Position numbers and translations under genes: made by a program. The notes beneath the pieces are model-generated. The model ran no database searches, was not told the origin of the DNA, and saw only the letters and a program-made list of their open reading frames with translations. Shown here in pieces: positions 1 to 11,781 of a DNA stretch of 11,781 nt (its first letter is position 1; the number at the start of each line of letters is the position of its first letter). The DNA is taken from IMG/VR virus record IMGVR_UViG_3300021400_001206, positions 1 through 11,781 of that record; one strand, written 5' to 3'. The DNA is from a virus.

Positions 1-26
1 TTAAATACTATGAAAGGAATAAAAAC

Positions 27-233
27 ATGATTAAAGTATTTACTTTAAATAAAAATGGAAAAATAGAATTAACAGAAAAAGAATTAAAATAGTTATTAGA
101 TAATGTATATTGGGAAGGATATAGAGATAATAATAAATCATCTTGGACTTACACAACTCCATTAACTTACCCTTATTATTCAAATATAACAGCAGACTCA
201 ATTACTTTAGGATCAGCTATAAAGGAGGAATGA
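27..233 (+). CDS. Hypothetical protein of 68 aa (if it starts at ATG 27), with one internal TAG at 90-92.
   Basis: ATG at 27 is preceded by aaagga at 13-18, and the ORF ends at TGA 231-233. The frame is also open upstream to the window edge, so this may be the 3' end of a longer gene. The TAG at 90-92 is read through as protein-like sequence (ELTEKELKxLLDNVYWEGYRD). No family recognised. Confidence 0.5.
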
Positions 234-239
234 AATAAA

Positions 240-935
240 ATGAAATTTGAAAATACCGAAGTTTGGGGTTTTGAACATGCTTTAAGAGGTATGAGAAATC
301 CCAAAAATAGTTGGGATAAAAGTGATAGCAATTGGGAATAGCACCCTTATAATCCTATTGGACCTAATGATATGAAATTAGCTAGAGCTCTTATTTAGGG
401 TGGTCCAGAGCATCGTAAATTCTTACGTCAAATTTTTGTATCTGTTGATATTACCGCACCTTTATATTGGTGGAAATAGTTTGACACTTATAAAATTGGC
501 ACAGTCGCTAATAGTACGTCAACTATGCATAAATTAACAAGCAAACCAATCACTCTTGATTGTTTTGAAACAGATGATTTTAATTCAGATTTAGTTTATT
601 ATACTGAACCAAATCCATATTCTGATGTTTATATTGAAATGGAAAATACAACAGGTATGTTATCTGAAATCATTATTGAGCAACTTGAATTTCTTCGTCA
701 AAAATATCTTGAAACAAAAGATAAGAAATATTGGAAATAGCTTGTGCGGTGGCTTCCTTAGGGGTGGCTTCAGACTAGAACTTGGACAGCAAATTATGAA
801 GTCATTCGAACTATTGTTCATCAACGATAGATGCATAAATTAAATTAGTGGAGCGGTTTAGACGATCCATCTAAACCTAATTTTATAAAATGGGCAAAAA
901 CATTACCTTATGCTGATGAATTTATTTTTAATTGA
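240..935 (+). CDS. ThyX-fold (flavin-dependent thymidylate synthase-like) protein of 231 aa with 7 internal TAG codons and a degenerate RHR motif.
   Basis: RBS aaggagg at 222-228, ATG at 240, stop TGA at 933-935. In-frame TAGs lie at 339, 396, 477, 738, 759, 828 and 846, all followed by continuous protein-like sequence. From memory of Thermotoga ThyX, the segments GGPEHRKFLRQIFVSVDITAPLYWWKxFDTYKIGTVANSTS and LVRWLPxGWLQTRTWTANYEVIRTIVHQRxMHKLNxW align with the [41 protein letters not shown] and [36 protein letters not shown] blocks. The catalytic RHR is replaced by TYK. The track ORFs 525..740 and 625..843 are fragments or overlaps of this gene. Confidence 0.55.
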
Positions 936-960
936 AAAATAAAAAATAAAATGTTATAAT
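932..960 (+). promoter_or_regulatory. Sigma70-type promoter: -35 TTGAAA (932-937), 17 bp spacer, extended -10 TGtTATAAT (952-960).
   Basis: Read directly from the sequence. It shares the TGTTATAATATAA motif with four other sites. It would drive the small ORF 1002..1163 and the gene at 1176..1562. Confidence 0.55.
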
Positions 961-1001
961 ATAATTATAAAATGAAAATTATGTTATAGAGGAGATTAAA
1001 A

Positions 1002-1163
1002 ATGAAGCTCGAAGGAAATAGAAAAGAAAAGTTTATACAAATGCTTGAAAAAGAAATCTTTAATGACGAGAGTGGTTTTATAGAGAATTATGAAGAAGAT
1101 TGGTATGATTTAGTAATTTTCTTTGAAGATTTAAAAAATGGTCAAATTGTAATTGCATATTAA
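1002..1163 (+). CDS. Small hypothetical protein (53 aa). It is a paralog of the N-terminal domain of the next gene.
   Basis: RBS gaggag at 989-994, ATG at 1002, TAA at 1161-1163. KEKFIQMLEKEIFNDESGFIENYEEDWYDLVIFFEDLKNG aligns with KERFIEFVNELMEMADVNEWDDEERKDWKDAFDFFEELKNN in the downstream gene. No TAG. Confidence 0.55.
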   Translation: MKLEGNRKEKFIQMLEKEIFNDESGFIENYEEDWYDLVIFFEDLKNGQIVIAY

Positions 1164-1175
1164 GAGGAATAAGAA

Positions 1176-1562
1176 ATGGCTAAGACTAAAAAAGAAAGAT
1201 TTATTGAATTTGTTAATGAACTTATGGAAATGGCAGATGTAAATGAATGGGATGACGAAGAAAGAAAAGATTGGAAAGATGCTTTTGATTTCTTTGAAGA
1301 ACTTAAAAACAATAAAGTAAAAACCGCAAAAGAAATGACTGAAAACGGTGCTAAACTTCTTTCTTGGATGCAAGAGAATAAAGAAAAGATGTCAAATGTT
1401 TTTACGTCTAAAGAAGCCGCAGAAGGACTCTTTACAAGCGGTCGCTCCATTGCAGGAACCATGAGAAAGCTAGTAAATGATGGTTATGTAAAGAAAACTG
1501 GTAAAGACCCTGTCCAGTATTCATTAACTGAAGCTGGAGAAAATTATCAGTTTGACAATTAA
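1176..1562 (+). CDS. Small protein (128 aa) with a C-terminal winged-helix-like DNA-binding domain; a possible early transcriptional regulator.
   Basis: RBS aagagg, ATG at 1176, TAA stop. The C-terminus FTSKEAAEGLFTSGRSIAGTMRKLVNDGYVKKTGKDPVQYSLTEAG has the helix-turn-helix plus wing pattern typical of MarR/PadR-like wHTH domains. The N-terminal domain is paralogous to ORF 1002..1163. Confidence 0.7.
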   Translation: MAKTKKERFIEFVNELMEMADVNEWDDEERKDWKDAFDFFEELKNNKVKTAKEMTENGAKLLSWMQENKEKMSNVFTSKEAAEGLFTSGRSIAGTMRKLVNDGYVKKTGKDPVQYSLTEAGENYQFDN

Positions 1563-1580
1563 AAAAATTTTTATTATAAT
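1552..1580 (+). promoter_or_regulatory. Consensus sigma70 promoter: TTGACA (1552-1557), 17 bp spacer, TATAAT (1575-1580).
   Basis: Perfect -35 and -10 hexamers at optimal spacing, starting within the last codons of gene 1176..1562 and lying upstream of the RBS aaggag of gene 1620. Confidence 0.65.
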
Positions 1581-1619
1581 ATAAAAGTAAAGTTGATTTA
1601 ATTTAAGGAGATAAAATTA

Positions 1620-2621
1620 ATGAAAAAGAACGCAAGATTTATTAACACAGAAAGAATTGAAGGATATGTTTATAGTACAGGTAGTAATTTTAATCAGCTT
1701 TCTGAAAGAACAACAGGAGAGAATTCTAAGCATCCTGGAACAAAATATATTGCGGGAGACCTTGATATTGCTGTAGATGAATCTGGTCTAAATGTAGTGA
1801 CTATTCATTATACATATGTAACACCAACATATGGCAGTGGTCAGGTAAATAATACTTATACAGCTCTTAAAAGAATTATTGATAATCCAGATAAAATTTG
1901 GATTAATGGCGGTAAGGAAAATGCCTTTAAGGTCCAGTGTACTGGAGTTTCTATCGCAATCAATGATTTCATTGGAGCAGATGGAAAATTTGTTGCCGCA
2001 ATTAGAAATGAAGGTGGATTTTGTTCTATCGTAAATGAATTTGGTCCAGAATCAAATAGAAATACTTTCTCTGCTGATATGCTTATTACAAAAGTTACTC
2101 ATATTGATGCAGATCCAGATAAGAATATTGAAAATGATTTCACAACAGTTAGTGGAGCAATCTTTGGATATGGAAAAACAATTCCTGTTCTTCTTCCTGT
2201 TTCATTTACAGTTCGAAGCGAAAAGGGTATGGAATACTTTGAAAATCTTGATGCTACACCTTCAGACCCCGTTTTTACAAAAGTTTGGGGACATGTTAAT
2301 TGTATGACTGTTAAAGTAAAGAAAACTGAAGAGTCAGCTTTTGGTGGTGATTATGTTCAGGAGTCTGAGCGTAAGAGTCGTGAGTACCTTATCACAGGAA
2401 CAGCAAAAGTACCATATGACTTTGGTGATGAAGAAGTTCTTACTGCTAATGATGTAAGCACAATGAATCAGAATCGTCAGATTATGCTTGCAGAGGTTGA
2501 AAGCAGACATAAGGAACGCCAGGCAGAAAAGGCTGCAAATGGAGTAAGCTTTGAAGCTACTACAAAAGCTCCTGCCGCAACAAAAACAGCAGGTGTGCCT
2601 GAAGGTGGATTTGTATTTTAA
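1620..2621 (+). CDS. Hypothetical protein (333 aa). It sits immediately upstream of the Sak4-like ATPase. A possible ssDNA-binding or annealing partner, by position only.
   Basis: Long uninterrupted ORF with RBS aaggag at 1605-1610 and a TAA stop. No TAG. GC content is noticeably higher than in neighbouring genes. The C-terminal tail is low-complexity (ATTKAPAATKTAGVPEGGFVF). No family recognised from sequence. Confidence 0.8.
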   Translation: MKKNARFINTERIEGYVYSTGSNFNQLSERTTGENSKHPGTKYIAGDLDIAVDESGLNVVTIHYTYVTPTYGSGQVNNTYTALKRIIDNPDKIWINGGKENAFKVQCTGVSIAINDFIGADGKFVAAIRNEGGFCSIVNEFGPESNRNTFSADMLITKVTHIDADPDKNIENDFTTVSGAIFGYGKTIPVLLPVSFTVRSEKGMEYFENLDATPSDPVFTKVWGHVNCMTVKVKKTEESAFGGDYVQESERKSREYLITGTAKVPYDFGDEEVLTANDVSTMNQNRQIMLAEVESRHKERQAEKAANGVSFEATTKAPAATKTAGVPEGGFVF

Positions 2622-2637
2622 TGAGAGGTAATAAATA

Positions 2638-3678
2638 ATGGCAGATATTAATATTTTTAACATCTAGCCGCATCAGGTTAGCCGTAATCTAAGAGGATAT
2701 TCAATCTTCTTTTACGGCTAGCCAAAAAGTGGCAAAACTACAACAGCATCTAAGTTTGAAAAGAATCTTCTTTTAGCTTTTGAAAAAGGTTATAACGCAA
2801 TTCCAGGAGTTATGGCACAGCCTATTAATAACTGGGCAGAATTTAGAAAAGTTCTTCGTCAGTTAAAAGACCCAAAAGCTAAAGATATGTTCTATACTAT
2901 CACTATTGATACTTGTGATATTGCATATGATTATTGTACAAAGTATATTTGTGATAACGCCTTGAGACCTGATGGCGGTTATGGTGTAGACAGTATTAGT
3001 GATATTCCTTTTGGAAAAGGATACGGTCTTGTATCAAAAGAATTTGATGAATGTCTTAGATCTATTGTTATGATGGACTACGGTCTAATTCTTATCTCAC
3101 ACGCAACTGATAAAGTTTTTAAAGATGAAGCTGGAAATGAATATAATAAAATCGTTCCAACTCTAGACAAACGAGCCAATAATATTGTTGCACGAATGGC
3201 AGACATTATTGGATACTCAAGAATTGTTACTGATAAAGAAGGTAATAACTTAACAAAACTTTTTATGCGTGGTACACCGAGATATGAAGCTGGTTCTAGA
3301 TTTAAATATACACCAAATTATATTGATTTTTCTTATGATAATCTTGTTTCCGCCATAAGTGATGCTATTGATAAACAAGCACAAGAAGATGGAAAAGAGT
3401 TTTTTACAGATAAGAAAAACAATCTTTATGAAGATACAACTAAAGACCTTAATTTTGATGAACTTATGAAAAATTGTAATGATTTGATTAAGGGAATGAT
3501 TGATAATAATTCTGAAGAAGTGTTTAAAGAGTTTTATCAACCTCGTATTGTTCAAATTACAGATCGTTATTTGGGCAGAGGTCAAAAGATGAGTCAGTGT
3601 TCAAGAGAACAGGTTGAAGCTTTGTCTTTAATTTATGATGATCTTCTCTTACTTTCCAAAGAGCCTGCTTCAGAATGA
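2638..3678 (+). CDS. Sak4-like / AAA_24-family RecA-fold ATPase (phage recombination-associated ATPase), 346 aa, with 2 internal TAG codons.
   Basis: RBS gagagg at 2623-2628, ATG at 2638, TGA at 3676-3678. The N-terminus reads MADINIFNIxPHQVSRNLRGYSIFFYGxPKSGKTTTASKF. The Walker A motif (GxPKSGKT) is intact only if the TAGs at 2665 and 2719 are translated. Downstream motifs ITIDTCD (Walker B-like) and LISHATD resemble AAA_24/Sak4 proteins. The track ORF 2812..3678 is the TAG-truncated fragment and lacks the P-loop. Confidence 0.8.
2676..2723 (+). other. 12-bp stem / 24-nt loop hairpin inside the 5' end of the ATPase CDS. It spans the Walker A coding region and holds the second TAG codon in its 3' arm.
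   Basis: ggttagccgtaa (2676-2687) pairs with ttacggctagcc (2712-2723) with one G-U pair. The first TAG (2665) lies 9 nt upstream of the stem. The pentamer TAGCC occurs three times in 60 nt. Confidence 0.5.
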
Positions 3679-3692
3679 TTATATATTAAAGG

Positions 3693-3731
3693 CTTGTCAA
3701 AGTCCCGTTCTTTTGACAAGTCTTTTTTTTT
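3693..3731 (+). terminator. Rho-independent terminator after the ATPase gene.
   Basis: Stem cttgtcaaag (3693-3702) pairs with cttttgacaag (3710-3720), loop tcccgtt, followed by tcttttttttt (3721-3731). Confidence 0.8.
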
Positions 3732-3741
3732 ATGTTATAAT
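3713..3741 (+). promoter_or_regulatory. Consensus sigma70 promoter: TTGACA (3713-3718, inside the terminator's 3' arm), 17 bp spacer, extended -10 TGtTATAAT (3733-3741).
   Basis: Read directly from the sequence. It drives the zinc-ribbon gene, DnaB and the downstream operon. Confidence 0.7.
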
Positions 3742-3771
3742 ATAATAAGAAATTTTTTAAGGAGATTTTTT

Positions 3772-4287
3772 ATGGCTCATAAAGTAAAATGTTTATATTG
3801 CGGTGAGCAATTTGATCGAGATATAGAACCAACAAAACAAGTCTCCGCACGCAGATACGCTCATTTAAAGTGTTGGGAAGAACATCTTGCAAATATGTCG
3901 CAAGAAGAAAAAGATATTGCAGCATTTTATGATTATACTCGGCAACTATTTGGAGAAGATTATAATTATGTATTAACTAAAAAGTTAGCTGAAAGATATG
4001 TAAAAGAAAATCAATATACATATAGTGGAATGTTAAAAACTCTTAAGTGGTATTATGAAAAAGAAGGCCATTCACTTGATAAAAGTAATGGAAGTATTGG
4101 TATTATTCCTTATATATATAAACAAGCATTAAATTATTATTATGCACTTTATCAAGCTCAATTAATAAATAAAGAGAAGGATATTTCAAATTTTATATTA
4201 CCAAAAGAAAGAACTATAGAAATAGAATCTCCACGAGTGTATGTACGTCCGCCGCATTTGTGGCTAGAAGAAGAGGAGGATGAATGA
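3772..4287 (+). CDS. Zinc-ribbon protein (171 aa), translationally coupled to DnaB. A possible helicase loader or replication-initiation accessory (positional inference).
   Basis: RBS aaggag at 3759-3764, ATG at 3772. The track ORF starts at 3694, but that start lies within the terminator. CLYCGEQF...HLKCWEEH is a C2-HC zinc-binding motif. Stop TGA overlaps the DnaB ATG (ATGA at 4284-4287). Confidence 0.7.
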   Translation: MAHKVKCLYCGEQFDRDIEPTKQVSARRYAHLKCWEEHLANMSQEEKDIAAFYDYTRQLFGEDYNYVLTKKLAERYVKENQYTYSGMLKTLKWYYEKEGHSLDKSNGSIGIIPYIYKQALNYYYALYQAQLINKEKDISNFILPKERTIEIESPRVYVRPPHLWLEEEEDE

Positions 4288-5828
4288 GTTCAAAATATGT
4301 AGATGTATCTGCGAATATGCAGGTAATAGGAGACGTTTTTATAAATCCATCTTTATTAGATTTAGAAGATAAATATAAATTCAATGAACAAGATTTTCCT
4401 CAAGAATTTCATAGAATTTTATTTGGTTCAATTTATAATCTCCATCAATTAGGAGTAAAACAAATTTCAATTGAGGATATAGAAAAATATTTAGAACAAC
4501 GTCCAAAGAAATATGCAATTTATAAAATGAACAAAGGTTCTGAATATTTAGAGAATATTAAACAAATGTGTCAATTAGCGGCATTTGATTATTATTATAA
4601 TCGAATGAAAAAGATGACTCTGTTAAGAATGTATAATAAAACCGTTGGAATGAATTTATCTTGGCTTTATGATCCAGATAATATTTTAGATGTAAAAAAG
4701 AAAGAAGCTCAAGAGACATGGTTTGATAATACCCCCATTAATGAGATTGCTAATCTTATTAATGACAAGATAGAAGAAATAAAATCTAAATATGTTGATA
4801 ACTCAGAAGATGAAATCATTCAAGCTGGTGACGGTGCGTTAGCTTTACTTGAAAGATTAAGAAAAAATCCTGAAGTTGGTTATCCTTTATATGGAAGATT
4901 AGTCAATACCATTCATCGCGGGGCTAGATTAAAAAAATTTTATTTGCGGTCGGCCGCTACTGGTGTCGGAAAAACGCGTTCCATGATTGCAGACGCTTGT
5001 TTTATTGCTTGTAATAAACTTTATAATCTTGAAACTAAACAATGGGAAGATAATGGAACTCGTGAACCAACTGTGTTTATTACAACAGAACAAGAAGAAG
5101 ATGAGATTCAAACTATGATGATGGCGTTTTTAGCTAATGTAAACGAGTCTCATATTCTTGAAAATACGTATGTTGGAGATGAATGGGAACGCGTAACCGA
5201 AGCTGCGGAGATTCTTGAAAAAAGTCCGTTATATATTAAAAAATTACCAGACTTTTCATTACAAGATATTGAAAATACAATTAAAAGCAATATCCGCAAT
5301 CATGGAGTAAGATATGTATTCATGGATTATATTCATTCAAGTATGAAAATTCTTAGTGAGATTAGTTCAAAAGCAGGGGTTAAAGGATTAAGAGAAGATA
5401 ATATTCTTTTTATGATAAGTGTAAGAATTAAAGATTTATGTAATCAATATGGTGTATTTGTAATGTCTGCAACGCAGTTAAATTCTGATTATGTAACAGC
5501 TCAACAGTATGATCAGAATCTTCTTCGTGGCGCTAAAGCTATTGCTGATAAAATAGATTGTGGCATGATTATGTTACAAACAAGTCAAGACGACAGAGAG
5601 TCTTTAAAAAATATTGTTAATTCAATGGGTATCGAAATGCCTGATATAAAAATGTCTGTTTATAAAAATAGACGCGCTAGATATAAAGATATATTACTTT
5701 GGTGTAAATCAGAACGAGGAACTTGTCGTATTAATCCATTATTTGTAACTAATTATAACTATGAATTAATAGATATAGAAGATTTAAAAATTACAGTAAC
5801 ACCTAAAATAGAAGCAAGCGCATTTTAA
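4284..5828 (+). CDS. dnaB: DnaB-family replicative DNA helicase (514 aa).
   Basis: Walker A LRSAATGVGKTRSM, Walker B VFMDYIHS, SATQLN motif, and a DnaB-like N-terminal domain (FHRILFGSIYNL). No internal TAG. TAA stop. Confidence 0.9.
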   Translation: MSSKYVDVSANMQVIGDVFINPSLLDLEDKYKFNEQDFPQEFHRILFGSIYNLHQLGVKQISIEDIEKYLEQRPKKYAIYKMNKGSEYLENIKQMCQLAAFDYYYNRMKKMTLLRMYNKTVGMNLSWLYDPDNILDVKKKEAQETWFDNTPINEIANLINDKIEEIKSKYVDNSEDEIIQAGDGALALLERLRKNPEVGYPLYGRLVNTIHRGARLKKFYLRSAATGVGKTRSMIADACFIACNKLYNLETKQWEDNGTREPTVFITTEQEEDEIQTMMMAFLANVNESHILENTYVGDEWERVTEAAEILEKSPLYIKKLPDFSLQDIENTIKSNIRNHGVRYVFMDYIHSSMKILSEISSKAGVKGLREDNILFMISVRIKDLCNQYGVFVMSATQLNSDYVTAQQYDQNLLRGAKAIADKIDCGMIMLQTSQDDRESLKNIVNSMGIEMPDIKMSVYKNRRARYKDILLWCKSERGTCRINPLFVTNYNYELIDIEDLKITVTPKIEASAF

Positions 5829-5839
5829 GGAGGATATAT

Positions 5840-6052
5840 ATGCAATATGGTAAGTGTTATAAATGTGCCCATAATGGAATTTGCAGAATTTTGATGGCAG
5901 AAGCCATATCTTCATTAGGATAGTTTGTGCGACTTTTTAATAAAGCACAAACCAGAAAAACGGATAGTAAATGTATTTTACAAATAGATTATACTTGTGA
6001 AAATTTTGTAGAAAAGAATAGTAATGAAGATATACTAAATATACAAGAATAA
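5840..6052 (+). CDS. Small Cys-rich (zinc-ribbon-like) protein, 70 aa, with one internal TAG.
   Basis: Strong RBS aaggagg at 5827-5833, ATG at 5840, TAA at 6050-6052. The TAG at 5921 is read through. The product is MQYGKCYKCAHNGIC...KCILQIDYTC with two Cys pairs. An 8-bp hairpin begins at the G of the TAG. Confidence 0.4.
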
Positions 6053-6068
6053 AAGCGAGTACATTTTA

Positions 6069-6239
6069 ATGAAAAAGAAATTTAGAAAACCAAGACCACA
6101 ACCTCCTAAATGGTTCTGGGCTGATAATGATAATTGTTGGAATTGTAAATACAATCATACAAAATGTAATAGTTGTAAAAGATTAAAAATATTTAGAAAA
6201 AAATATAGAGATAAAAAAACAATAAAGGAGAAAAGATGA
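6069..6239 (+). CDS. Small basic zinc-ribbon protein (56 aa), translationally coupled to the kinase-like gene.
   Basis: The product MKKKFRKPRPQPPKWFWADNDNCWNCKYNHTKCNSCKRLK has a CxxC-x7-CxxC motif. Stop TGA at 6237-6239 overlaps ATG 6236 (ATGA). No TAG. Confidence 0.5.
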   Translation: MKKKFRKPRPQPPKWFWADNDNCWNCKYNHTKCNSCKRLKIFRKKYRDKKTIKEKR

Positions 6240-6643
6240 TTATTTGTGGTTTTCCTGGGGTCGGAAAATCTACCTTAGCAAAATTTTCTAATTGGATAGA
6301 TTTAGAAAGCACCCCATTTGAAAAAGATTGGGTTCGTTATGCAAAAGTAGCAAAACATATGAGTGATAATGGATATAATGTTATGGTATCTACTCATCCC
6401 CAGTTGTTAGAACAATTTGAACAAATGGAAGTAAGATATACTGTTGTAGTACCTCCTTTTACTGATGTTTCTATTTATAAAGATAGATATATCAAAAGAG
6501 GAAACAATATTGATTTTACTTCCTTAATTGAAATAAATTGGGATAAATGGATTGGAGATATTATAACAAAATCTTCAGTTAATAAAACTGTTGTAATATT
6601 ACCAAAAAATGGTTGTTTACAAGCCTATATTGAAAAAATATGA
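6236..6643 (+). CDS. P-loop NTPase, small nucleotide/nucleoside kinase-like protein (135 aa).
   Basis: N-terminal Walker A MIICGFPGVGKSTLA. The small size and fold pattern are typical of AAA_17/18 or dNMP-kinase-like proteins. Substrate unknown. Confidence 0.75.
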   Translation: MIICGFPGVGKSTLAKFSNWIDLESTPFEKDWVRYAKVAKHMSDNGYNVMVSTHPQLLEQFEQMEVRYTVVVPPFTDVSIYKDRYIKRGNNIDFTSLIEINWDKWIGDIITKSSVNKTVVILPKNGCLQAYIEKI

Positions 6644-6737
6644 AAATATATAAAGAATTAAAATACTTATGGAGTTAGTTAGGTTTTGTACTATGGTGCG
6701 GGAATTGGAGGAAAGCTGAGGAAACTTGTCAAAAAAT

Positions 6738-6746
6738 TGATATAAT
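6738..6746 (+). promoter_or_regulatory. Possible extended -10 element TGaTATAAT upstream of the primase gene, with no good -35.
   Basis: tgatataat at 6738-6746. The nearest -35-like hexamer, ttgtca at 6726-6731, is only 9 bp away. Weak call. Confidence 0.25.
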
Positions 6747-6804
6747 CGCAAAACAACATCCAATTATAAAATTTTTTGCCATGATATTACATTAAGGAAT
6801 TGAT

Positions 6805-7902
6805 ATGAAATTTAAATATGATAAAGACATTTTAAAAGAAAACTTATCAATAGAAGAAGTATTTGATTTAGTTAGTGAGTTAGGCGGTGAACCAATTATG
6901 GGTAATGGATTATTTACCGCCCGCACTATCTGTCATGGCGGCGATAGTCACAAACTTTATTATTATGAAAATACTCATTTATTTCATTGTTATACAGGAT
7001 GCGGGGACGCATCATTTGATATATATGATTTAGTTTTAAGAGTAAATAAAACTGCTGGAATTGAAAGTTTTTCTCTTTCCAGAGCAATATCTTTTGTAGC
7101 TAGATATTTTGGATATACAGCTGAAATATTTGATTTTGAAGATAATCAAGATGTTAGTGAAGACTGGAAAATTATTAATAATTTTAAAAGAAATAGAGAA
7201 AAATCTCAACCACAAATTATAGAATTAAAAACTTATGATGATAAAATATTAAAATATTTACCTCATCCCCATATCTTACCGTGGGAGAAAGAAGATATAA
7301 CATTTGATATAATGGAATCAAGAGGTATATGTTATAATCCAATAAGCGAAGGAATTGTTATTCCACATTATGATATAGATAATAAATTAATTGGGATTCG
7401 AGAAAGAACTCTTATAAAAGAAAATGAAATATATGGCAAATATCGTCCAGCTATAATTGGTGGCAAGATGTATAACCACCCGCTCGGTTTTTCACTCTAT
7501 AACCTCAACAATAGCAAAAAAGCAATTTCTATATTTCAAAAAGTAATTGTTTTTGAAGGTGAAAAAAGTTGTCTTAAATATGCTTCTTATTTTGGTAAAG
7601 ATTCAGATATTAGTGTAGCATGTTGCGGTAGTAATTTAATTAATTATCAAGTTAAACTACTTTTATCTCTTGGAGTAAAAGAAATTATTATTGCACTTGA
7701 TAAACAGTTTCAAAAAATTGGTGATAACGAATGGCAAAAATGGGTTATTAAATTAAAAACTTTATATAATAAGTATGGTAATTATGTAAATATTAGTTAT
7801 ATGTTTGATAAAGATAATTTGCTTGGATATAAAGATTCGCCAATAGATTGTGGGAAGGATACGTTTTTAGAATTATTTAAAAGGAGAGTTACAATAGAAT
7901 GA
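6805..7902 (+). CDS. DNA primase with CHC2 zinc finger and TOPRIM domain (365 aa).
   Basis: CHGGDSHKLYYYENTHLFHCYTGCG matches the DnaG-type CHC2 zinc-binding signature. VIVFEGEKSCLKYA (TOPRIM glutamate) and IIALDKQ are also present. RBS taaggaa. Stop TGA overlaps the next ATG (ATGA at 7899). Confidence 0.85.
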   Translation: MKFKYDKDILKENLSIEEVFDLVSELGGEPIMGNGLFTARTICHGGDSHKLYYYENTHLFHCYTGCGDASFDIYDLVLRVNKTAGIESFSLSRAISFVARYFGYTAEIFDFEDNQDVSEDWKIINNFKRNREKSQPQIIELKTYDDKILKYLPHPHILPWEKEDITFDIMESRGICYNPISEGIVIPHYDIDNKLIGIRERTLIKENEIYGKYRPAIIGGKMYNHPLGFSLYNLNNSKKAISIFQKVIVFEGEKSCLKYASYFGKDSDISVACCGSNLINYQVKLLLSLGVKEIIIALDKQFQKIGDNEWQKWVIKLKTLYNKYGNYVNISYMFDKDNLLGYKDSPIDCGKDTFLELFKRRVTIE

Positions 7903-8699
7903 ATGCAAATCCGTGGAGACATAAAGAAGATAATAAAATAAAAGCACAAAAACAAATTAAATACATGGATGAGAACTTTGCTAATGAAACTGCGGAGGCC
8001 GTCGCTAATACAGTTATATATACTGGTCCTGTAGATATATGGGATTGGACTAAAAATGGTTTTAATCCAGTCCCCTATTCACAATTACTTGATATGGGTA
8101 CTGTTGATGCGATTTTTCATGTTCGAGAAGTCTTAGGAGAAGATAATAAAGAAGTTAAAGTTGCTGCGCTCAACTTTGCGTCATATAGAAATCCTGGTGG
8201 GAAATTTGTTGATGGTAGTAATGCTCAAGAAGAATGTCTATGTCATGAATCTAATCTTTATAATATTTTAAGAAACTTCACATCATATTATAGAGAAAAT
8301 AATTCTAAGCCAAATAAAAATCTTTATACTGATAGAGCCTTATATTCTCCAGATGTGATTTTTAACAAAGGAAATCATATAGTTAAAGCAGATGTAATTA
8401 CTTGTGCCTCTCCAAATTGGACTGCTGCACGTAAATGGAATGTTTCTCAAGTTGAAAATACTCTTGTATTAGCTCAACGTATTCAGTTTATTAAAGATAT
8501 TGCAGAACTTGAAGCAGTTGATATTCTTATTCTTGGGGCTTGGGGATGTGGAGTATTCGGACAAAATCCAAGAACTGTTGCAAAATTATTTGATTTTATT
8601 TTTAGAGAAAGTGAAATTAAAAATATTGTATATGCAGTTCCTGGAGGATTAAATTCTGATAATTTTAAAGCCTTTGACGAATGTATTAGAAAGAGTTGA
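7899..8699 (+). CDS. Bacterial-type poly(ADP-ribose) glycohydrolase-like macrodomain protein (DUF2263 / TIGR02452 family), 266 aa.
   Basis: ALNFASYRNPGGKFVDGSNAQEECLCHESNLY matches the microbial PARG signature (NFAS...PGG-x8-QEE). LILGAWGCGVFGQNP is the macrodomain diphosphate-binding loop. No TAG. TGA stop. Confidence 0.85.
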   Translation: MNANPWRHKEDNKIKAQKQIKYMDENFANETAEAVANTVIYTGPVDIWDWTKNGFNPVPYSQLLDMGTVDAIFHVREVLGEDNKEVKVAALNFASYRNPGGKFVDGSNAQEECLCHESNLYNILRNFTSYYRENNSKPNKNLYTDRALYSPDVIFNKGNHIVKADVITCASPNWTAARKWNVSQVENTLVLAQRIQFIKDIAELEAVDILILGAWGCGVFGQNPRTVAKLFDFIFRESEIKNIVYAVPGGLNSDNFKAFDECIRKS

Positions 8700-8721
8700 C
8701 TTGACAACTCTTTCTTTTTTT
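8691..8721 (+). terminator. Rho-independent terminator after the PARG-like gene.
   Basis: aagagttg (8691-8698) pairs with caactctt (8705-8712), loop acttga, followed by tctttttttt. Confidence 0.75.
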
Positions 8722-8729
8722 GTTATAAT
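8701..8729 (+). promoter_or_regulatory. Consensus sigma70 promoter: TTGACA (8701-8706, in the terminator loop/stem), 17 bp spacer, extended -10 TGtTATAAT (8721-8729).
   Basis: Read directly from the sequence. It drives the RecJ-like gene. Confidence 0.7.
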
Positions 8730-8768
8730 ATAAAGTAGAAATATTATAAAATTAAAGGAAGAAAATAT

Positions 8769-10571
8769 ATGAAATATGAATTAATAAATAAACCAAATGA
8801 AAACTTTTCAACAATACAACAAATATTATATAATAGAGGAATTGCGAAAGATGAAATTTTACATTATGTAAATCTATCTGATTAGGATATTAATTCCCCA
8901 TTGTCTTTAGGAGAAACAAATCTCAAAAATGGGTTAATGGCTATTATTAATACTGTAAAAGAAAATGCTGATGCTTTAGTAATTGTAGACTGTGATTGTG
9001 ATGGTTACACATCTGCAGCTCTTCTTATTAATTATTTATATAAAATATTTCCCACTTGGGTCACTAATCATTTAGACTGGTACATGCATGATAGTAAGCA
9101 ACATGGGTTAAGTGATTGTATTGATTTTGTATTAGCTCATAATCCAAGGCTTGTGATTTGTCCAGATTCAAGTAGTAATGATTATAGTTATCATAAGACA
9201 TTAGCAGATAAAAATATTCAAGTATTAGTTTTAGATCATCACTTAGCAGATCGTATTAGTGAAAATGCTATTATTATTAATAATCAATTATCAGATTATC
9301 CTAATAAAGAATTATCTGGTGTTGGAGTCGTATGGCAATTTTGTCGATATATAGATAGATTTTTTTCTAATCCAAAAAATTATAAAATATGTAAAATGGC
9401 AGATGAATTTTTAGATTTAGTTGCTCTTGGGAATTGCGGTGATATGATGTCATTACGGTCTTTTGAAACTCGTTATCTAATTACAAAAGGGTTTAAAAAA
9501 GAAAATATTAAAAACCCTTTTATTGATTATATGATTGATAAAAACTCATTTCCTTTATCAAAAGCAGATTATGTATCATCAAATCCTGATATGGGATGCA
9601 CATCTATGGGCGCTGCATTTTTTATTGTACCATTTGTTAATGCTATTACTAGAAGTGGAACGATAGAATAGAAAAACTTACTTTTTAATTCTATGTTAAA
9701 TCATAAAGCTTTTACAGAAGTTATTTCAAACAAGCGTGGGCATAAATTAGGTTAGAAAGAAAAATTAATTTTACAAGCAATTAGAACAGTTACGAATGTT
9801 AAAAATAGACAAACGAGAGCAGAAGATACAGGATTAGATATGTTAGAGAAAATGATTGAAACTAATCATATGCTTAATCATAAAATTCTTTTATTCTTAT
9901 TAGAGCCTAATAAAATTGATCCTGAAATTCGTGGTTTAATTGCAAATAAATTTATGGCAAAATATCAAAGACCTTGTTGTCTATTAACTAAAACTAATAG
10001 AAATGGCAAAGAAACTTATGAAGGCTCTATGCGTGGATATACAAAAACTGGAATTGACAGTTTTAAAGAAGTGCTTGAACAATGCCCAGGAGTTTTATAT
10101 GTAGAAGGACATGATAACGCGGCTGGGCTTGGTATAGAAGCAGATCATGTAAATGATTTTCTTTATAAGATTGATTAGCTTCTTGAAGATGTCTCTGTTG
10201 AACCTATTTATAGAATTGATTATAATTTTAATGAAAAAGAAAACAACAATCAGCGCATTTTAGATATTGCAGATATGAATGACTATTGGGGTCAAGATGT
10301 AGATAGAGCTTATGTAAATATTAATTTTAAAGTTACTGATTCTAATTTTAAAGTTATGAAAAGCAATACTTTAAAATTTAATTTACCTAACGGATTATCT
10401 ATTATTAAATTTAATGGAACTGAAGAAGAAATTACTAGATTTACAACAACAGGGTATCTAGAAGTGAACGCTATTTGTAAATGCAATAAAAATTAGTGGA
10501 ATGGTTGCGTCTATCCGCAACTTATTATGTAGGATTTTGAAATTGTGGATTCTGCTAAATACTACTTTTAA
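8769..10571 (+). CDS. recJ: RecJ-like DHH/DHHA1 phosphoesterase (ssDNA exonuclease family), about 600 aa, with 6 internal TAG codons.
   Basis: ATG at 8769. In-frame TAGs at 8883, 9669, 9753, 10176, 10494 and 10530. True stop TAA at 10569-10571. RecJ N-terminal pattern ILYNRGIAKDEILHYVNLSDxDINSPLSL. DHH motifs IVDCDCDGYTSAALL and VLVLDHHLAD. DHHA1 motif VEGHDNAAGLG lies in the segment after the second and third TAG. The track ORFs 8901..9671, 9840..10178 and 10275..10496 are all in the same frame and are fragments of this one gene. Confidence 0.75.
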
Positions 10572-10601
10572 TGGCTCGGCGCGCAAACACCCGTACCTAG
10601 G

Positions 10602-10657
10602 AAGCAAAAATGCATTTGGATTTTTTTATTTGCATTTTTGCTTTTTGATTTTTTTAT
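10602..10657 (+). terminator. Rho-independent terminator after the RecJ-like gene.
   Basis: 13-bp perfect stem: aagcaaaaatgca (10602-10614) pairs with tgcatttttgctt (10631-10643). 16-nt loop, followed by a T-rich tract to 10657. Confidence 0.75.
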
Positions 10658-10673
10658 AAAAATTTGTTATAAT
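10645..10673 (+). promoter_or_regulatory. Sigma70 promoter: TTGATT (10645-10650), 17 bp spacer, extended -10 TGtTATAAT (10665-10673).
   Basis: Read directly from the sequence. It drives the NADAR gene and the downstream helicase. Confidence 0.6.
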
Positions 10674-10703
10674 ATATATAAATAAAATGTTAGGAGAATA
10701 AAT

Positions 10704-11156
10704 ATGGATATTGGAAGTGGTTCAGGTTATCCTGCAGCCTCATTAAGTAATTTTGCACCGCATCCTTTTATTATAGATGATGTACCTTGTAATTCAATGG
10801 AAGGCTTTCTACAATCTTTAAAATTTAAAAATATTGACATGCAAAAATATGTATGTTCTTTAGTTGGAAAAAGCGCAAAGTATAAAGGAAAAGATAAAAA
10901 ATGGTGGAAAACACAAACTCTATATTGGCAAGGTAAAGAATATAAACGTGATAGTCAGGAATATCAAATTCTTTTAAATAGAGCTTACAATGCGTTATAT
11001 CAAAATGAAGGATTTAGAAAAGCTTTAGAAGCTAGCCGTCCGGCAATCTTATCACACTCAATAGGGAAGAATAATCCTTCAAAAACAGTTTTAACTCAAG
11101 CAGAATTTGTGGGTCGTTTAATGAAGCTAAGAATGGGAAAAAAATTAGATGAATAA
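10704..11156 (+). CDS. NADAR-family (YbiA-like, DUF1768) ADP-ribose/N-glycoside hydrolase, 150 aa.
   Basis: SLSNFAPHPFIIDDVPCNSMEGFLQSLKF matches the YbiA/NADAR signature (SNFA-P...E..Q..KF). RBS taggag. TAA stop. No TAG. Confidence 0.85.
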   Translation: MDIGSGSGYPAASLSNFAPHPFIIDDVPCNSMEGFLQSLKFKNIDMQKYVCSLVGKSAKYKGKDKKWWKTQTLYWQGKEYKRDSQEYQILLNRAYNALYQNEGFRKALEASRPAILSHSIGKNNPSKTVLTQAEFVGRLMKLRMGKKLDE

Positions 11157-11171
11157 TAGAGGTGCATAGAT

Positions 11172-11414
11172 ATGTCAGATGAAAGTTTAAAAATTAATAC
11201 AATAAATGAAAAAAAATTAAAAGGCTATCAATATGATTCTTTAATATATAGATATATTCGAGCTAGAGAGCAAATGGCAGAATATGAATATCTAAGAGAT
11301 AGACAGAGCAATGTCTCTAATCATACTGAATGGACTGTGTATCGGCAAAGAGCGAATAGAGATATAATGCGTTTTGTTCAAATTTTAGATGAAGTGATTG
11401 GAGAGCATGAATAA
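11172..11414 (+). CDS. Hypothetical protein (80 aa).
   Basis: RBS agaggtg, ATG at 11172, TAA at 11412-11414, which overlaps the next start by 1 nt. No family recognised. Confidence 0.6.
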   Translation: MSDESLKINTINEKKLKGYQYDSLIYRYIRAREQMAEYEYLRDRQSNVSNHTEWTVYRQRANRDIMRFVQILDEVIGEHE

Positions 11415-11781
11415 TGATATTAACTAAAAAACAAGAGGAAGGATTAAAAACTGCTGTAGCGCGACATCGGGACGGAGAAAAATATACGGTGATTGCTGGC
11501 TATGCTGGAACTGGTAAAAGTACACTTGTAAGATATATTATTGATGCTCTTAATGTTGAAGAAAGTAGAGTATGTTATTGCGCTTTTACTGGCAAAGCTG
11601 CAGAAGTATTAAAGAAAAAAGGAAATAAAAATGTAGCAACACTTCATCGGTTGCTATATGAACATATTCCGCGACCAGCGGGCGGTTTCTTTAGAAAGCC
11701 GAAACCACTTATTGATTATGATGTAGTTGTAGTTGATGAAGTTTCTATGGCTCCTAAGTCTTTGATGGAGTTACTGTTTAA
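11414..11781 (+). CDS. SF1 RecD/Dda-like DNA helicase (AAA_30-type), N-terminal fragment; it continues past the window end.
   Basis: Walker A IAGYAGTGKSTL and Walker B VVVVDEVSM. ATG at 11414 in frame 2. No stop before the window end. Confidence 0.8.
   Translation, partial: MILTKKQEEGLKTAVARHRDGEKYTVIAGYAGTGKSTLVRYIIDALNVEESRVCYCAFTGKAAEVLKKKGNKNVATLHRLLYEHIPRPAGGFFRKPKPLIDYDVVVVDEVSMAPKSLMELLF

Follow-up and report, generated by a model that had tools for sequence, protein, structure and literature searches.

A predicted ThyX-fold protein with replaced catalytic residues in a distant SPbeta-like phage that uses TAG as a sense codon, perhaps for glutamate

The flavin-dependent thymidylate synthase ThyX methylates deoxyuridine monophosphate (dUMP) with the help of flavin adenine dinucleotide (FAD) and folate. 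In this enzyme, R78 stabilizes the reduced flavin and H53 stacks on both flavin and folate (PMC11940539), R174 is the uracil-activating arginine that serves dUMP activation, and S88, R90 and Y91 are required for methylene transfer, the Thermotoga maritima mutants S88A, R90A and Y91A being severely slowed (PMC8316439). Other work has described phages in which the amber codon TAG has become a sense codon. In crAss-like phages its translation as glutamine (Gln) has been proven by metaproteomics, and a Gln-type transfer RNA (tRNA) with a CUA anticodon was reported for phAss-1. Both subjects meet in a gene at positions 240-935 of the IMG/VR virus record IMGVR_UViG_3300021400_001206, of which we analyzed one stretch of 11,781 nucleotides (nt; positions 1 to 11,781), hereafter the window. 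We consider it likely that this gene encodes a ThyX-fold protein whose catalytic residues have been replaced, and that TAG serves in it as a sense codon, most likely for glutamate (Glu).

The gene runs on the plus strand from an ATG at 240 to a TGA at 933-935 and comprises 231 sense codons followed by the stop. It contains seven in-frame TAG codons and no in-frame TAA or TGA, and under the standard code it is broken into short open reading frames (ORFs). In 200 shuffles of the window, the longest TAA/TGA-free run over the six frames averaged 130 codons, with a maximum of 233; a run of 232 codons is unusual, yet possible by chance. As the shuffles reach 233 codons, this chance test is inadequate, and the proof of the gene must come from homology. 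The product matched PHROG 6721 with an E value of 7.6e-58 (196.7 bits), its residues 2-229 aligning with positions 9-215 of the 218-position profile. More than 8,000 relatives were found in a database of 5.8 billion proteins, and clustering at 50% identity yielded 4,033 representatives, 997 of them below 1e-30. A contig 95.5% identical across the gene kept all seven TAGs and had an eighth. By homology, bases 240-935 are a real phage gene, predicted to yield a functional 231-amino acid (aa) protein of PHROG 6721. A pseudogene inactivated through seven nonsense mutations would explain why the standard code gives seven breaks in the frame, but it is hardly credible: the interruptions are TAG only, without TAA, TGA or frameshift, related contigs have kept them, in-frame TAG is also a feature of further conserved genes that are intact, and TAG terminates no gene.

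The relationship with ThyX did not emerge from direct searches. The first-pass annotation had proposed a ThyX fold devoid of the RHR motif and had named a comparison with the hidden Markov model (HMM) PF02511 as the check. Translated with Q at TAG, the protein gave no PF02511 match in Pfam even at E = 10, an outcome that formally counts against the proposal. The version with E at TAG gave no Pfam match at E = 0.01, and NCBIfam (TIGR02170) gave none either. Sequence searches of the PDB were without a match, whether the query was the protein alone or a profile of 119 sequences. Alignment with hhalign of the family profile with T. maritima ThyX, the sequence used being identical to PDB 1KQ4/1O26, gave E = 0.04 (single sequence) and 0.02 (35-sequence profile), neither of which is significant. 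The failed searches speak against a ThyX assignment, and so does the weakness of the residue-by-residue mapping that results from profile-profile E values of only 0.02-0.04.

Evidence for the fold came from relatives and from modeling. Weak matches to PF02511 (Thy1/ThyX) were found in 29 of 119 diverse relatives (best E = 9.6e-5), no other family recurred among their matches, and five of the 119 had sub-threshold matches to TIGR02170. A monomer model built by AlphaFold2 (AF2) on a diverse alignment reached a predicted local distance difference test score (pLDDT) of 95.8 and a predicted template modeling score of 0.88, and Foldseek searches of viral structure models found phage ThyX proteins. 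An earlier AF2 model from a shallow alignment of 64 close relatives (pLDDT 58.8) was discarded. Since the protein lacks a PF02511 match of its own and the profile-profile E value is 0.02, the fold call rests on the structure prediction and on the relatives' weak matches. On these grounds the gene product is predicted to have the ThyX fold, and the best explanation of the models is that the PHROG 6721 family descends from ThyX and has kept its fold. Thus, the fold proposed at first pass stands on the AF2 model and the relatives' matches, and the protein itself gave no significant HMM match. Its claim that TYK takes the place of RHR agrees with both hhalign runs, which gave the same register over approximately 140-150 columns.

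The RHR position is occupied by T83-Y84-K85, with family frequencies of 0.93 (T), 1.00 (Y) and 0.93 (K), within the motif DTYKIGTVANSTS formed by residues 82-94 of the product. No segment of the family is better conserved than residues 82-98, the counterpart of the ThyX active-site loop. Y84 and S92 do not vary there, and the conservation of D82, T83, K85, T88, S94, T95, M96 and H97 is 90% or more. In relatives down to 41% identity, some 35 positions are at least 90% conserved, and many of them are polar and cluster in the former active-site loop. The fates of individual ThyX residues are listed in Table 1. Because the alignment indicates that R78, H53, R90, Y91 and the RHR motif are replaced, canonical FAD/folate-dependent dUMP methylation is not expected, as the first-pass annotation had also judged. 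An ordinary active ThyX with a shifted or misaligned RHR would fit the ThyX-like fold, but we regard it as very improbable. The first-pass annotation had named an RHR elsewhere in the alignment as a sign of an ordinary ThyX. The sequence is devoid of RHR tripeptides, the conserved columns of the 119 relatives show none, neither PF02511 nor TIGR02170 is matched, and two independent hhalign runs put TYK on RHR.

As the loop is the best-conserved segment and N85, S88, R174 and H178 each have a counterpart in the protein, we infer that the same pocket is in use for a different reaction or ligand. Such conservation favors a pocket that works, with a new specificity, over an enzyme in decay. Our best guess is that the pocket would hold a pyrimidine base or nucleotide and handle it without FAD/folate methyl transfer, a pyrimidine-related ligand being suggested by the retained R174 equivalent. 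That this function is a guess counts against the proposal. The loss of four or more catalytic or cofactor residues would also suit a non-catalytic ThyX descendant, i.e., a pseudoenzyme acting as a structural or regulatory partner of the adjoining replication and recombination proteins or as a small-molecule binder, and the gene consistently lies beside AAA_24/Sak4 and, in cultured phages, beside Erf and UvsX. We hold such a pseudoenzyme to be unlikely, as the conserved polar residues D82, T83, Y84, K85, S92, S94, T95, H97, R196 and H199 form a pattern typical of an active site.

The protein might instead act in DNA base hypermodification or in the synthesis of unusual nucleotides, as raised at first pass, and the TAG-rich, membrane-anchored GIY-YIG nuclease encoded upstream would then degrade unmodified host DNA. 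A similar pairing in T4, of a hydroxymethylase with the ThyA fold and EndoII, a GIY-YIG nuclease, speaks for this idea. The highly conserved pocket loop with its equivalent of the uracil-activating arginine, the GIY-YIG gene just upstream in 41 of 142 loci, and the NrdD, NrdG, guanylate-kinase-like kinase and dUTPase encoded within ~20 kilobases (kb) are also in its favor. We nevertheless find it rather improbable: the flavin/folate chemistry residues H53, R78, R90 and Y91 are gone, no gene for folate or for a glycosyl-, amino-acid or other transferase is found among the conserved neighbors, members of the family are present both in small phages (42-60 kb) and in large ones, and dUTPase points to ordinary thymidine metabolism. 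The link to folate or hypermodification genes suggested at first pass was not upheld. No folate or base-modification gene was recurrent near the family member in the 142 loci, and the conserved neighbors are replication and recombination genes.

The pocket with a new specificity that we favor would be shared by a family whose members in cultured phages are all annotated "hypothetical protein." Their carriers are phages of Clostridium, Clostridioides, Enterocloster, Fusobacterium and Desulfovibrio, where it is surrounded by genes for clamp loader, UvsX, Erf, helicase and primase. A literature search for a ThyX-like family without RHR or for a function of PHROG 6721 found nothing relevant. By sequence comparison, the protein belongs to PHROG 6721 and fails most sequence-defined tests for ThyX. 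The ThyX fold, hitherto essentially a thymidylate/UMP methylase scaffold, would then have given rise to a very large phage-specific family with a rebuilt pocket, which makes PHROG 6721 a well-defined target for biochemistry.

The use of TAG as a sense codon extends beyond this gene. Five window genes carry 17 in-frame TAGs in total, and besides gene 240-935, three are whole only if TAG is read through. All 16 complete window genes end with TAA or TGA, and the same pattern holds in related contigs. Judging from these genes, TAG is reassigned to sense across the whole phage, and only TAA and TGA are predicted to stop translation. The high TAG density had been taken at first pass as a property of the gene and as a possible sign of a distinct origin or expression class. 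The excess over the window average was confirmed, with 3.03 TAGs per 100 codons in the gene versus 0.46 over all 17 window genes and 0.29 in the rest of the window (Fisher test of the gene against the rest, p = 3.9e-5). TAG is nevertheless a codon of the whole phage, and a distinct origin is not needed to account for the excess. A distinct expression class is plausible, because the TAG density of the gene matches that of tail genes and not that of replisome genes.

Which amino acid TAG stands for was addressed by comparing recoded relatives. They fall into two groups: in the clade of the window, TAG occupies columns of Glu and none of the Gln columns that the family conserves, whereas the second group consists of four other loci with TAG at those Gln columns. 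Codon 80 is TAG, GAA or GAG in relatives with in-frame TAGs in this gene, and CAA or CAG was found there in no relative, recoded or not. In window-clade orthologues (60-80% identical), the counts of codons opposite TAG were 231 for GAA, 34 for GAG, 30 for CAA, 28 for AAA and 27 for GAT, a GAG-like and not a CAG-like profile. The same pairing script applied to all other family loci, which include other recoded lineages, gave CAG 82, CAA 17 and GAG 3. When each column was counted once, TAG alternated with a single residue in 16 columns for Glu and 1 for Gln. The same count for CAG gave 3 and 43, from which TAG differs (p = 4e-11); that for GAG gave 72 and 1, with no significant difference from TAG. 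Among otherwise invariant columns of the clade, the share with TAG was 12 of 78 for Glu, 1 of 37 for Gln and 10 of 1,361 for the other residues (Glu versus all others, p = 8e-11). Non-overlapping ORFs were used for the residue tally at TAG columns.

Other proteins pointed the same way. TAG falls on an invariant Glu of the GIY-YIG domain, and the RecJ-like protein scored 434.8 bits against its PHROG profile with E at the TAG sites, versus 428.5 with Q and 429.2 with K. The signature of genetic code 15, i.e., TAG on conserved Gln and in exchange with CAA/CAG, was seen in the control lineages and not in the window clade. Close homologues of the ThyX-fold protein in databases have Q at every TAG site because gene callers translate them with code 15, and the nearest is not translatable under table 11. 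Most close relatives escaped a metagenome scan that used the Q-translated protein, their TAG codons not matching the Q-back-translated patterns. Taken together, these comparisons lead us to favor, somewhat beyond even chances, decoding of TAG mainly as Glu in the window clade.

Several results weigh against Glu. ARAGORN found no tRNA of any kind in ~60 kb of the phage and close relatives, and no CUA suppressor tRNA in the window, in 21 kb of its 110-kb contig or in ~180 loci. The E and Q versions were tied on the PHROG 6721 profile at 196.7 bits each. In a de-duplicated comparison with distant TAG-free homologues, likelihoods were nearly tied at -80.8 (E) and -82.7 (Q), the conserved columns of this comparison counting 5 for Glu and 0 for Gln. 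TAG in the tail module pairs with 14 Glu and 7 Gln codons, about their relative abundance, a few TAG columns are clearly of Gln type, and direct comparison of invariant Glu with invariant Gln columns gave p = 0.058. Published surveys of recoded phages report TAG to Gln only, and the authors of the Lak phage study explained TAGs that align with Glu by GAG-to-TAG mutation. Some tests went neither way. GIY-YIG domain profiles were mixed for E versus Q, and relative to TAG-free homologues, Glu content was +2.4 standard deviations with TAG as E and Gln content +3.9 with TAG as Q, which is not decisive. For a TAG-rich tail protein, only two weak records were found in the search for TAG-free homologues from cultured phages. 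In some standard-code relatives (contigs L055-L057, positions ~7100-9200), the ThyX-fold gene is followed at a distance of 0.5-3 kb by a small array of four tRNA genes (Leu-AAG, Arg-TCT, Leu-TAA and Gly-TCC).

The gene and the fold could thus be as described with TAG read as Gln under code 15, the Glu-aligned TAGs being GAG-to-TAG mutations at sites where Gln is tolerated. All published cases, including the crAss-like metaproteomics and the phAss-1 tRNA-CUA, follow this pattern, the Lak phage authors gave the same explanation, and ThyX itself carries Gln at the position of codon 80. The ties in profile score and likelihood, the Gln-type columns and a Glu:Gln ratio of only 2 to 1 among the tail-module partners are also expected in that case. 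Code 15 should, however, favor synonymous CAG-to-TAG changes, as in the other lineages of the family (CAG+CAA 99 versus GAG 3), and here the relation is reversed. TAG also avoids invariant Gln columns and favors invariant Glu columns, codon 80 is never CAA/CAG in any relative, and four Glu-to-Gln changes at strongly conserved Glu positions would be needed in one protein. We regard Gln decoding as possible but doubtful, and leave what probability remains to ambiguous Glu/Gln decoding.

How Glu might be inserted can be envisaged from host biology. In many Firmicutes, Gln-tRNA is first charged with Glu and then amidated by GatCAB, which recognizes U1-A72. A CUA suppressor that is glutamylated but unrecognized by GatCAB would in principle insert Glu. 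No relevant report turned up in a literature search on phages that read TAG as Glu. If amber TAG means Glu and not Gln in this phage and its clade of SPbeta-like gut phages, which we think slightly the better bet, this would be the first phage amber reassignment to anything but Gln in the literature that was searched. Translation of recoded phages with code 15 would then put Gln at hundreds of Glu positions, and the belief that hosts allow only TAG-to-Gln and TGA-to-Trp takeovers would need revision.

Use of TAG is uneven along the phage genome. The window genes for DnaB, primase, YorF, YorH and the PARG-like protein have no TAG, and counts in related contigs are given in Table 1. Borges et al. 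found recoded codons in phage late genes and not in replication genes; the unevenness is similar here, and it reaches accessory genes inside the replication module. Downstream of the window on the same contig (L168), a guanylate-kinase-like gene (16161-16736) has two TAGs, the anaerobic ribonucleotide reductase gene nrdD (16805-19114) three, and a gene for a formate/nitrite-transporter-like membrane protein (19104-19664) one. All three are split where genes were called with the standard code, and the NrdG and PolIII alpha genes are TAG-free. In relatives ~42% identical (contigs L089-L107 and other loci), TAG aligns with TGG (Trp) in ~20 loci, with a count of 4 each. There TAG may be a genuine stop, the gene may be a pseudogene, or TAG may be recoded differently.

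Perfect 12/12 matches to the sigma-A consensus promoter occur at 1552-1580, 3713-3741 and 8701-8729, ahead of TAG-free genes and of the TAG-rich RecJ-like gene. The promoter-like site that overlaps the end of gene 240-935 (Table 1) probably starts the next transcription unit. All four sites are intergenic and on the coding strand, and the overall number of weaker matches equals the expectation from shuffles. Terminator-like hairpins at 3688-3725 and 8688-8715 overlap two of the promoters, their 3' arm holding the -35 box. As perfect promoters precede TAG-free and TAG-rich genes alike, any gating would act on translation and not on transcription. Translation of the ThyX-fold gene would then depend on, or wait for, whatever decodes TAG. 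Alternatively, a poorly decoded codon would simply be avoided in essential or abundant proteins. Uneven TAG use within one replication module would offer a clean system to test whether recoding acts as a timer or throttle of translation.

By its gene content, the window is the replication/recombination module of a phage that is distantly SPbeta-like and probably infects Firmicutes of the gut. From 5' to 3' it contains a 68-codon ORF, the ThyX-fold gene, ORFs of 53 and 128 aa, and the genes for YorF, an AAA_24/Sak4-like protein, YorH and DnaB. Small ORFs follow, then genes for primase, a microbial-type PARG, the RecJ-like exonuclease, a T4 gp30.3-family protein, an 80-aa ORF and a PIF1-like helicase. 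Positions 1172-11781 are 100% identical to the ENA contig ERZ1756080 NODE_862 (110 kb, 324-fold coverage). In fuller contigs, endolysin, RNase H, GyrB, GyrA, LigA and then the GIY-YIG protein are encoded upstream, and PolIII alpha, the guanylate-kinase-like protein, NrdD and NrdG downstream. Further downstream, a related contig has dUTPase and SPbeta-type tail genes (YomU/V/W type). The Pfam families seen were YorF, Phage_SPbeta_YorH, AAA_24, DnaB_C, DHH, YomU_Tube, YomV_2nd, YomW and YonB, and the best cultured matches of the window DnaB were YorI proteins of the SPbeta group (40% identity). Besides the GIY-YIG gene, recurrent neighbors in the 142 family loci were AAA_24 (40), YorF (37), LigA (36) and the 128-aa protein (32).

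Additional features of these contigs were noted. Mosaicism is evident between the window and contig L001 (95% identical), in which window positions 1-225 (the 68-codon ORF), ~5829-6813 and 7899-8765 (the PARG gene) have no counterpart. The RecJ-like gene is flanked by genes for a PARG catalytic domain (PF10021, E = 6e-25; 7899-8699) and a T4 gp30.3-family protein (PF08010, E = 7e-55; 10704-11156); both are TAG-free, and the PARG gene is absent from L001. The two proteins may remove ADP-ribose to counter host defense. The GIY-YIG gene, one small ORF upstream of the ThyX-fold gene in this phage, was located in L172 (7914-8855), L077 (5015-5998), L001 (9024-10001) and L084 (7685-8665). In its product, an apparently hydrophobic N-terminal segment is followed by a long, repetitive stretch rich in charged residues that may form a coiled coil, and the GIY-YIG nuclease domain is C-terminal. 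In L179 (4713-7964), a GIY-YIG gene seems to have been inserted into the NrdD gene. The pieces have separate gene calls, which hints at an intron or a homing endonuclease. Transfer-messenger RNA (tmRNA) genes were predicted ~5-6 kb upstream of the family member in three metagenomic relatives ~42% identical (L090, 4474-4845; L099, 4384-4754; L106, 3778-4150). These tmRNAs may be phage-borne or may mark prophage integration sites at ssrA.

Table 1. Features of the window (positions in nt), residues of the gene 240-935 product aligned with ThyX, and TAG counts in related contigs
Feature	Position	Strand	Remark
ThyX-fold protein gene (PHROG 6721 family)	240..935	+	231 aa, 7 TAG sense codons
TAG codon 34	339..341	+	Family column variable
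TAG codon 53	396..398	+	TAG-free homologues: K 30/61, R 14, S 7, others
TAG codon 80	477..479	+	Glu in 61/61 TAG-free homologues; aligns with ThyX Q75
TAG codon 167	738..740	+	Glu in 50/61 TAG-free homologues; aligns with ThyX E144
TAG codon 174	759..761	+	Glu in 44/61 TAG-free homologues
TAG codon 197	828..830	+	Lys or Arg column in TAG-free homologues
TAG codon 203	846..848	+	Glu in 59/60 TAG-free homologues; aligns with ThyX E182
Codons T83-Y84-K85	486..494	+	In place of ThyX R78-H79-R80
Codons N91-S92-T93-S94-T95-M96-H97-K98	510..533	+	Counterpart of ThyX active-site loop (N85...S88-G89-R90-Y91)
Codons R196 to H199	825..836	+	TAG codon 197 included; R196/H199 equivalent to ThyX R174/H178
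Shine-Dalgarno-like AAAGGAGG	221..228	+	11 nt 5' of ATG 240, inside last codons of upstream ORF
ThyX R78-H79-R80 to window T83-Y84-K85			Replaced
ThyX H53 to window P56			Replaced; family column S, T or P
ThyX E86 to window S92			Replaced
ThyX R90 to window M96			Replaced
ThyX Y91 to window H97			Replaced
ThyX R165 to window E187			Replaced
ThyX R147 to non-conserved family column			Replaced
ThyX N85 to window N91			Kept; family conservation 91%
ThyX S88 to window S94			Kept; family conservation 99%
ThyX N163 to window N185			Kept; family conservation 76%
ThyX R174 to window R196			Kept; family conservation 97%
ThyX H178 to window H199			Kept; family conservation 96%
Promoter-like site, sigma-A type	932..960	+	TTGAAA, 17 nt, TG-TATAAT; 11/12, extended -10; overlaps stop of gene 240-935
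68-codon ORF	27..233	+	One in-frame TAG (90-92); ORF between TAG-rich GIY-YIG gene and ThyX-fold gene in contig L172
AAA_24/Sak4-like gene	2638..3678	+	Two in-frame TAGs (2665-2667, 2719-2721)
RecJ-like (YorK-like) exonuclease gene	8769..10571	+	Six in-frame TAGs; three ORFs under standard code
Related contigs: GIY-YIG gene (~320 codons)			10-21 in-frame TAGs; most TAG-dense gene seen
Related contigs: RecJ-like gene			6-11 in-frame TAGs
Related contigs: ThyX-fold gene			0-8 in-frame TAGs
Related contigs: tail genes			Up to 11 in-frame TAGs
Related contigs: PolIII (1,324 aa), LigA, gyrase, DnaB, tube protein, YonB			0-1 in-frame TAGs

Compared with known enzymes of this fold, the window protein has a length similar to that of ThyX (PF02511; T. 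maritima 1O26, Helicobacter pylori 3AH5), but only 11-15% identity, and it does not match the model of that family. The PHROG 6721 family has invariant residues of its own, namely Y84, S92, D82, K85, H97, R19, D29, S30 and D44. PolB, the ThyX-like UMP/dUMP C5-methylase of polyoxin biosynthesis, is still a flavin-dependent methylase. Its sequence (PDB 4P5A) is recognizably that of a ThyX (phmmer with T. maritima ThyX, E = 3.7e-34), whereas the window protein has lost the ThyX sequence features that PolB retains.

With SPbeta-group Bacillus phages, the phage shares the gene order YorF, YorG (AAA_24), YorH, YorI (DnaB), primase, YorK (RecJ-like) and PolIII alpha, and its related contig shares the tail genes YomU, YomV and YomW. 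SPbeta differs in that it uses the standard code, and the DnaB identity is only about 40%. A tblastn search of Bacillus phage records found no PHROG 6721 homologue.

Like the code-15 phages (crAss-like, Lak, the "gemstone" clades and phAss-1), this phage has in-frame TAG in conserved genes, never uses TAG as a stop, and enriches TAG in late or accessory genes while avoiding it in replication genes (Borges et al.). The host phylum, likely Firmicutes, is also shared. In contrast, TAG aligns with Gln and exchanges with CAG/CAA in those phages, and with Glu and GAA/GAG in the window clade.

UAG as Glu, alone or together with UAA, is known from nuclear codes of ciliates such as that of the peritrichs (NCBI table 30), and UAG reassignments have reportedly been described in phyllopharyngean ciliates in one study. 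Those are eukaryotic nuclear codes that go along with altered release factors, unlike viruses that impose a code on a bacterial host using the standard one.

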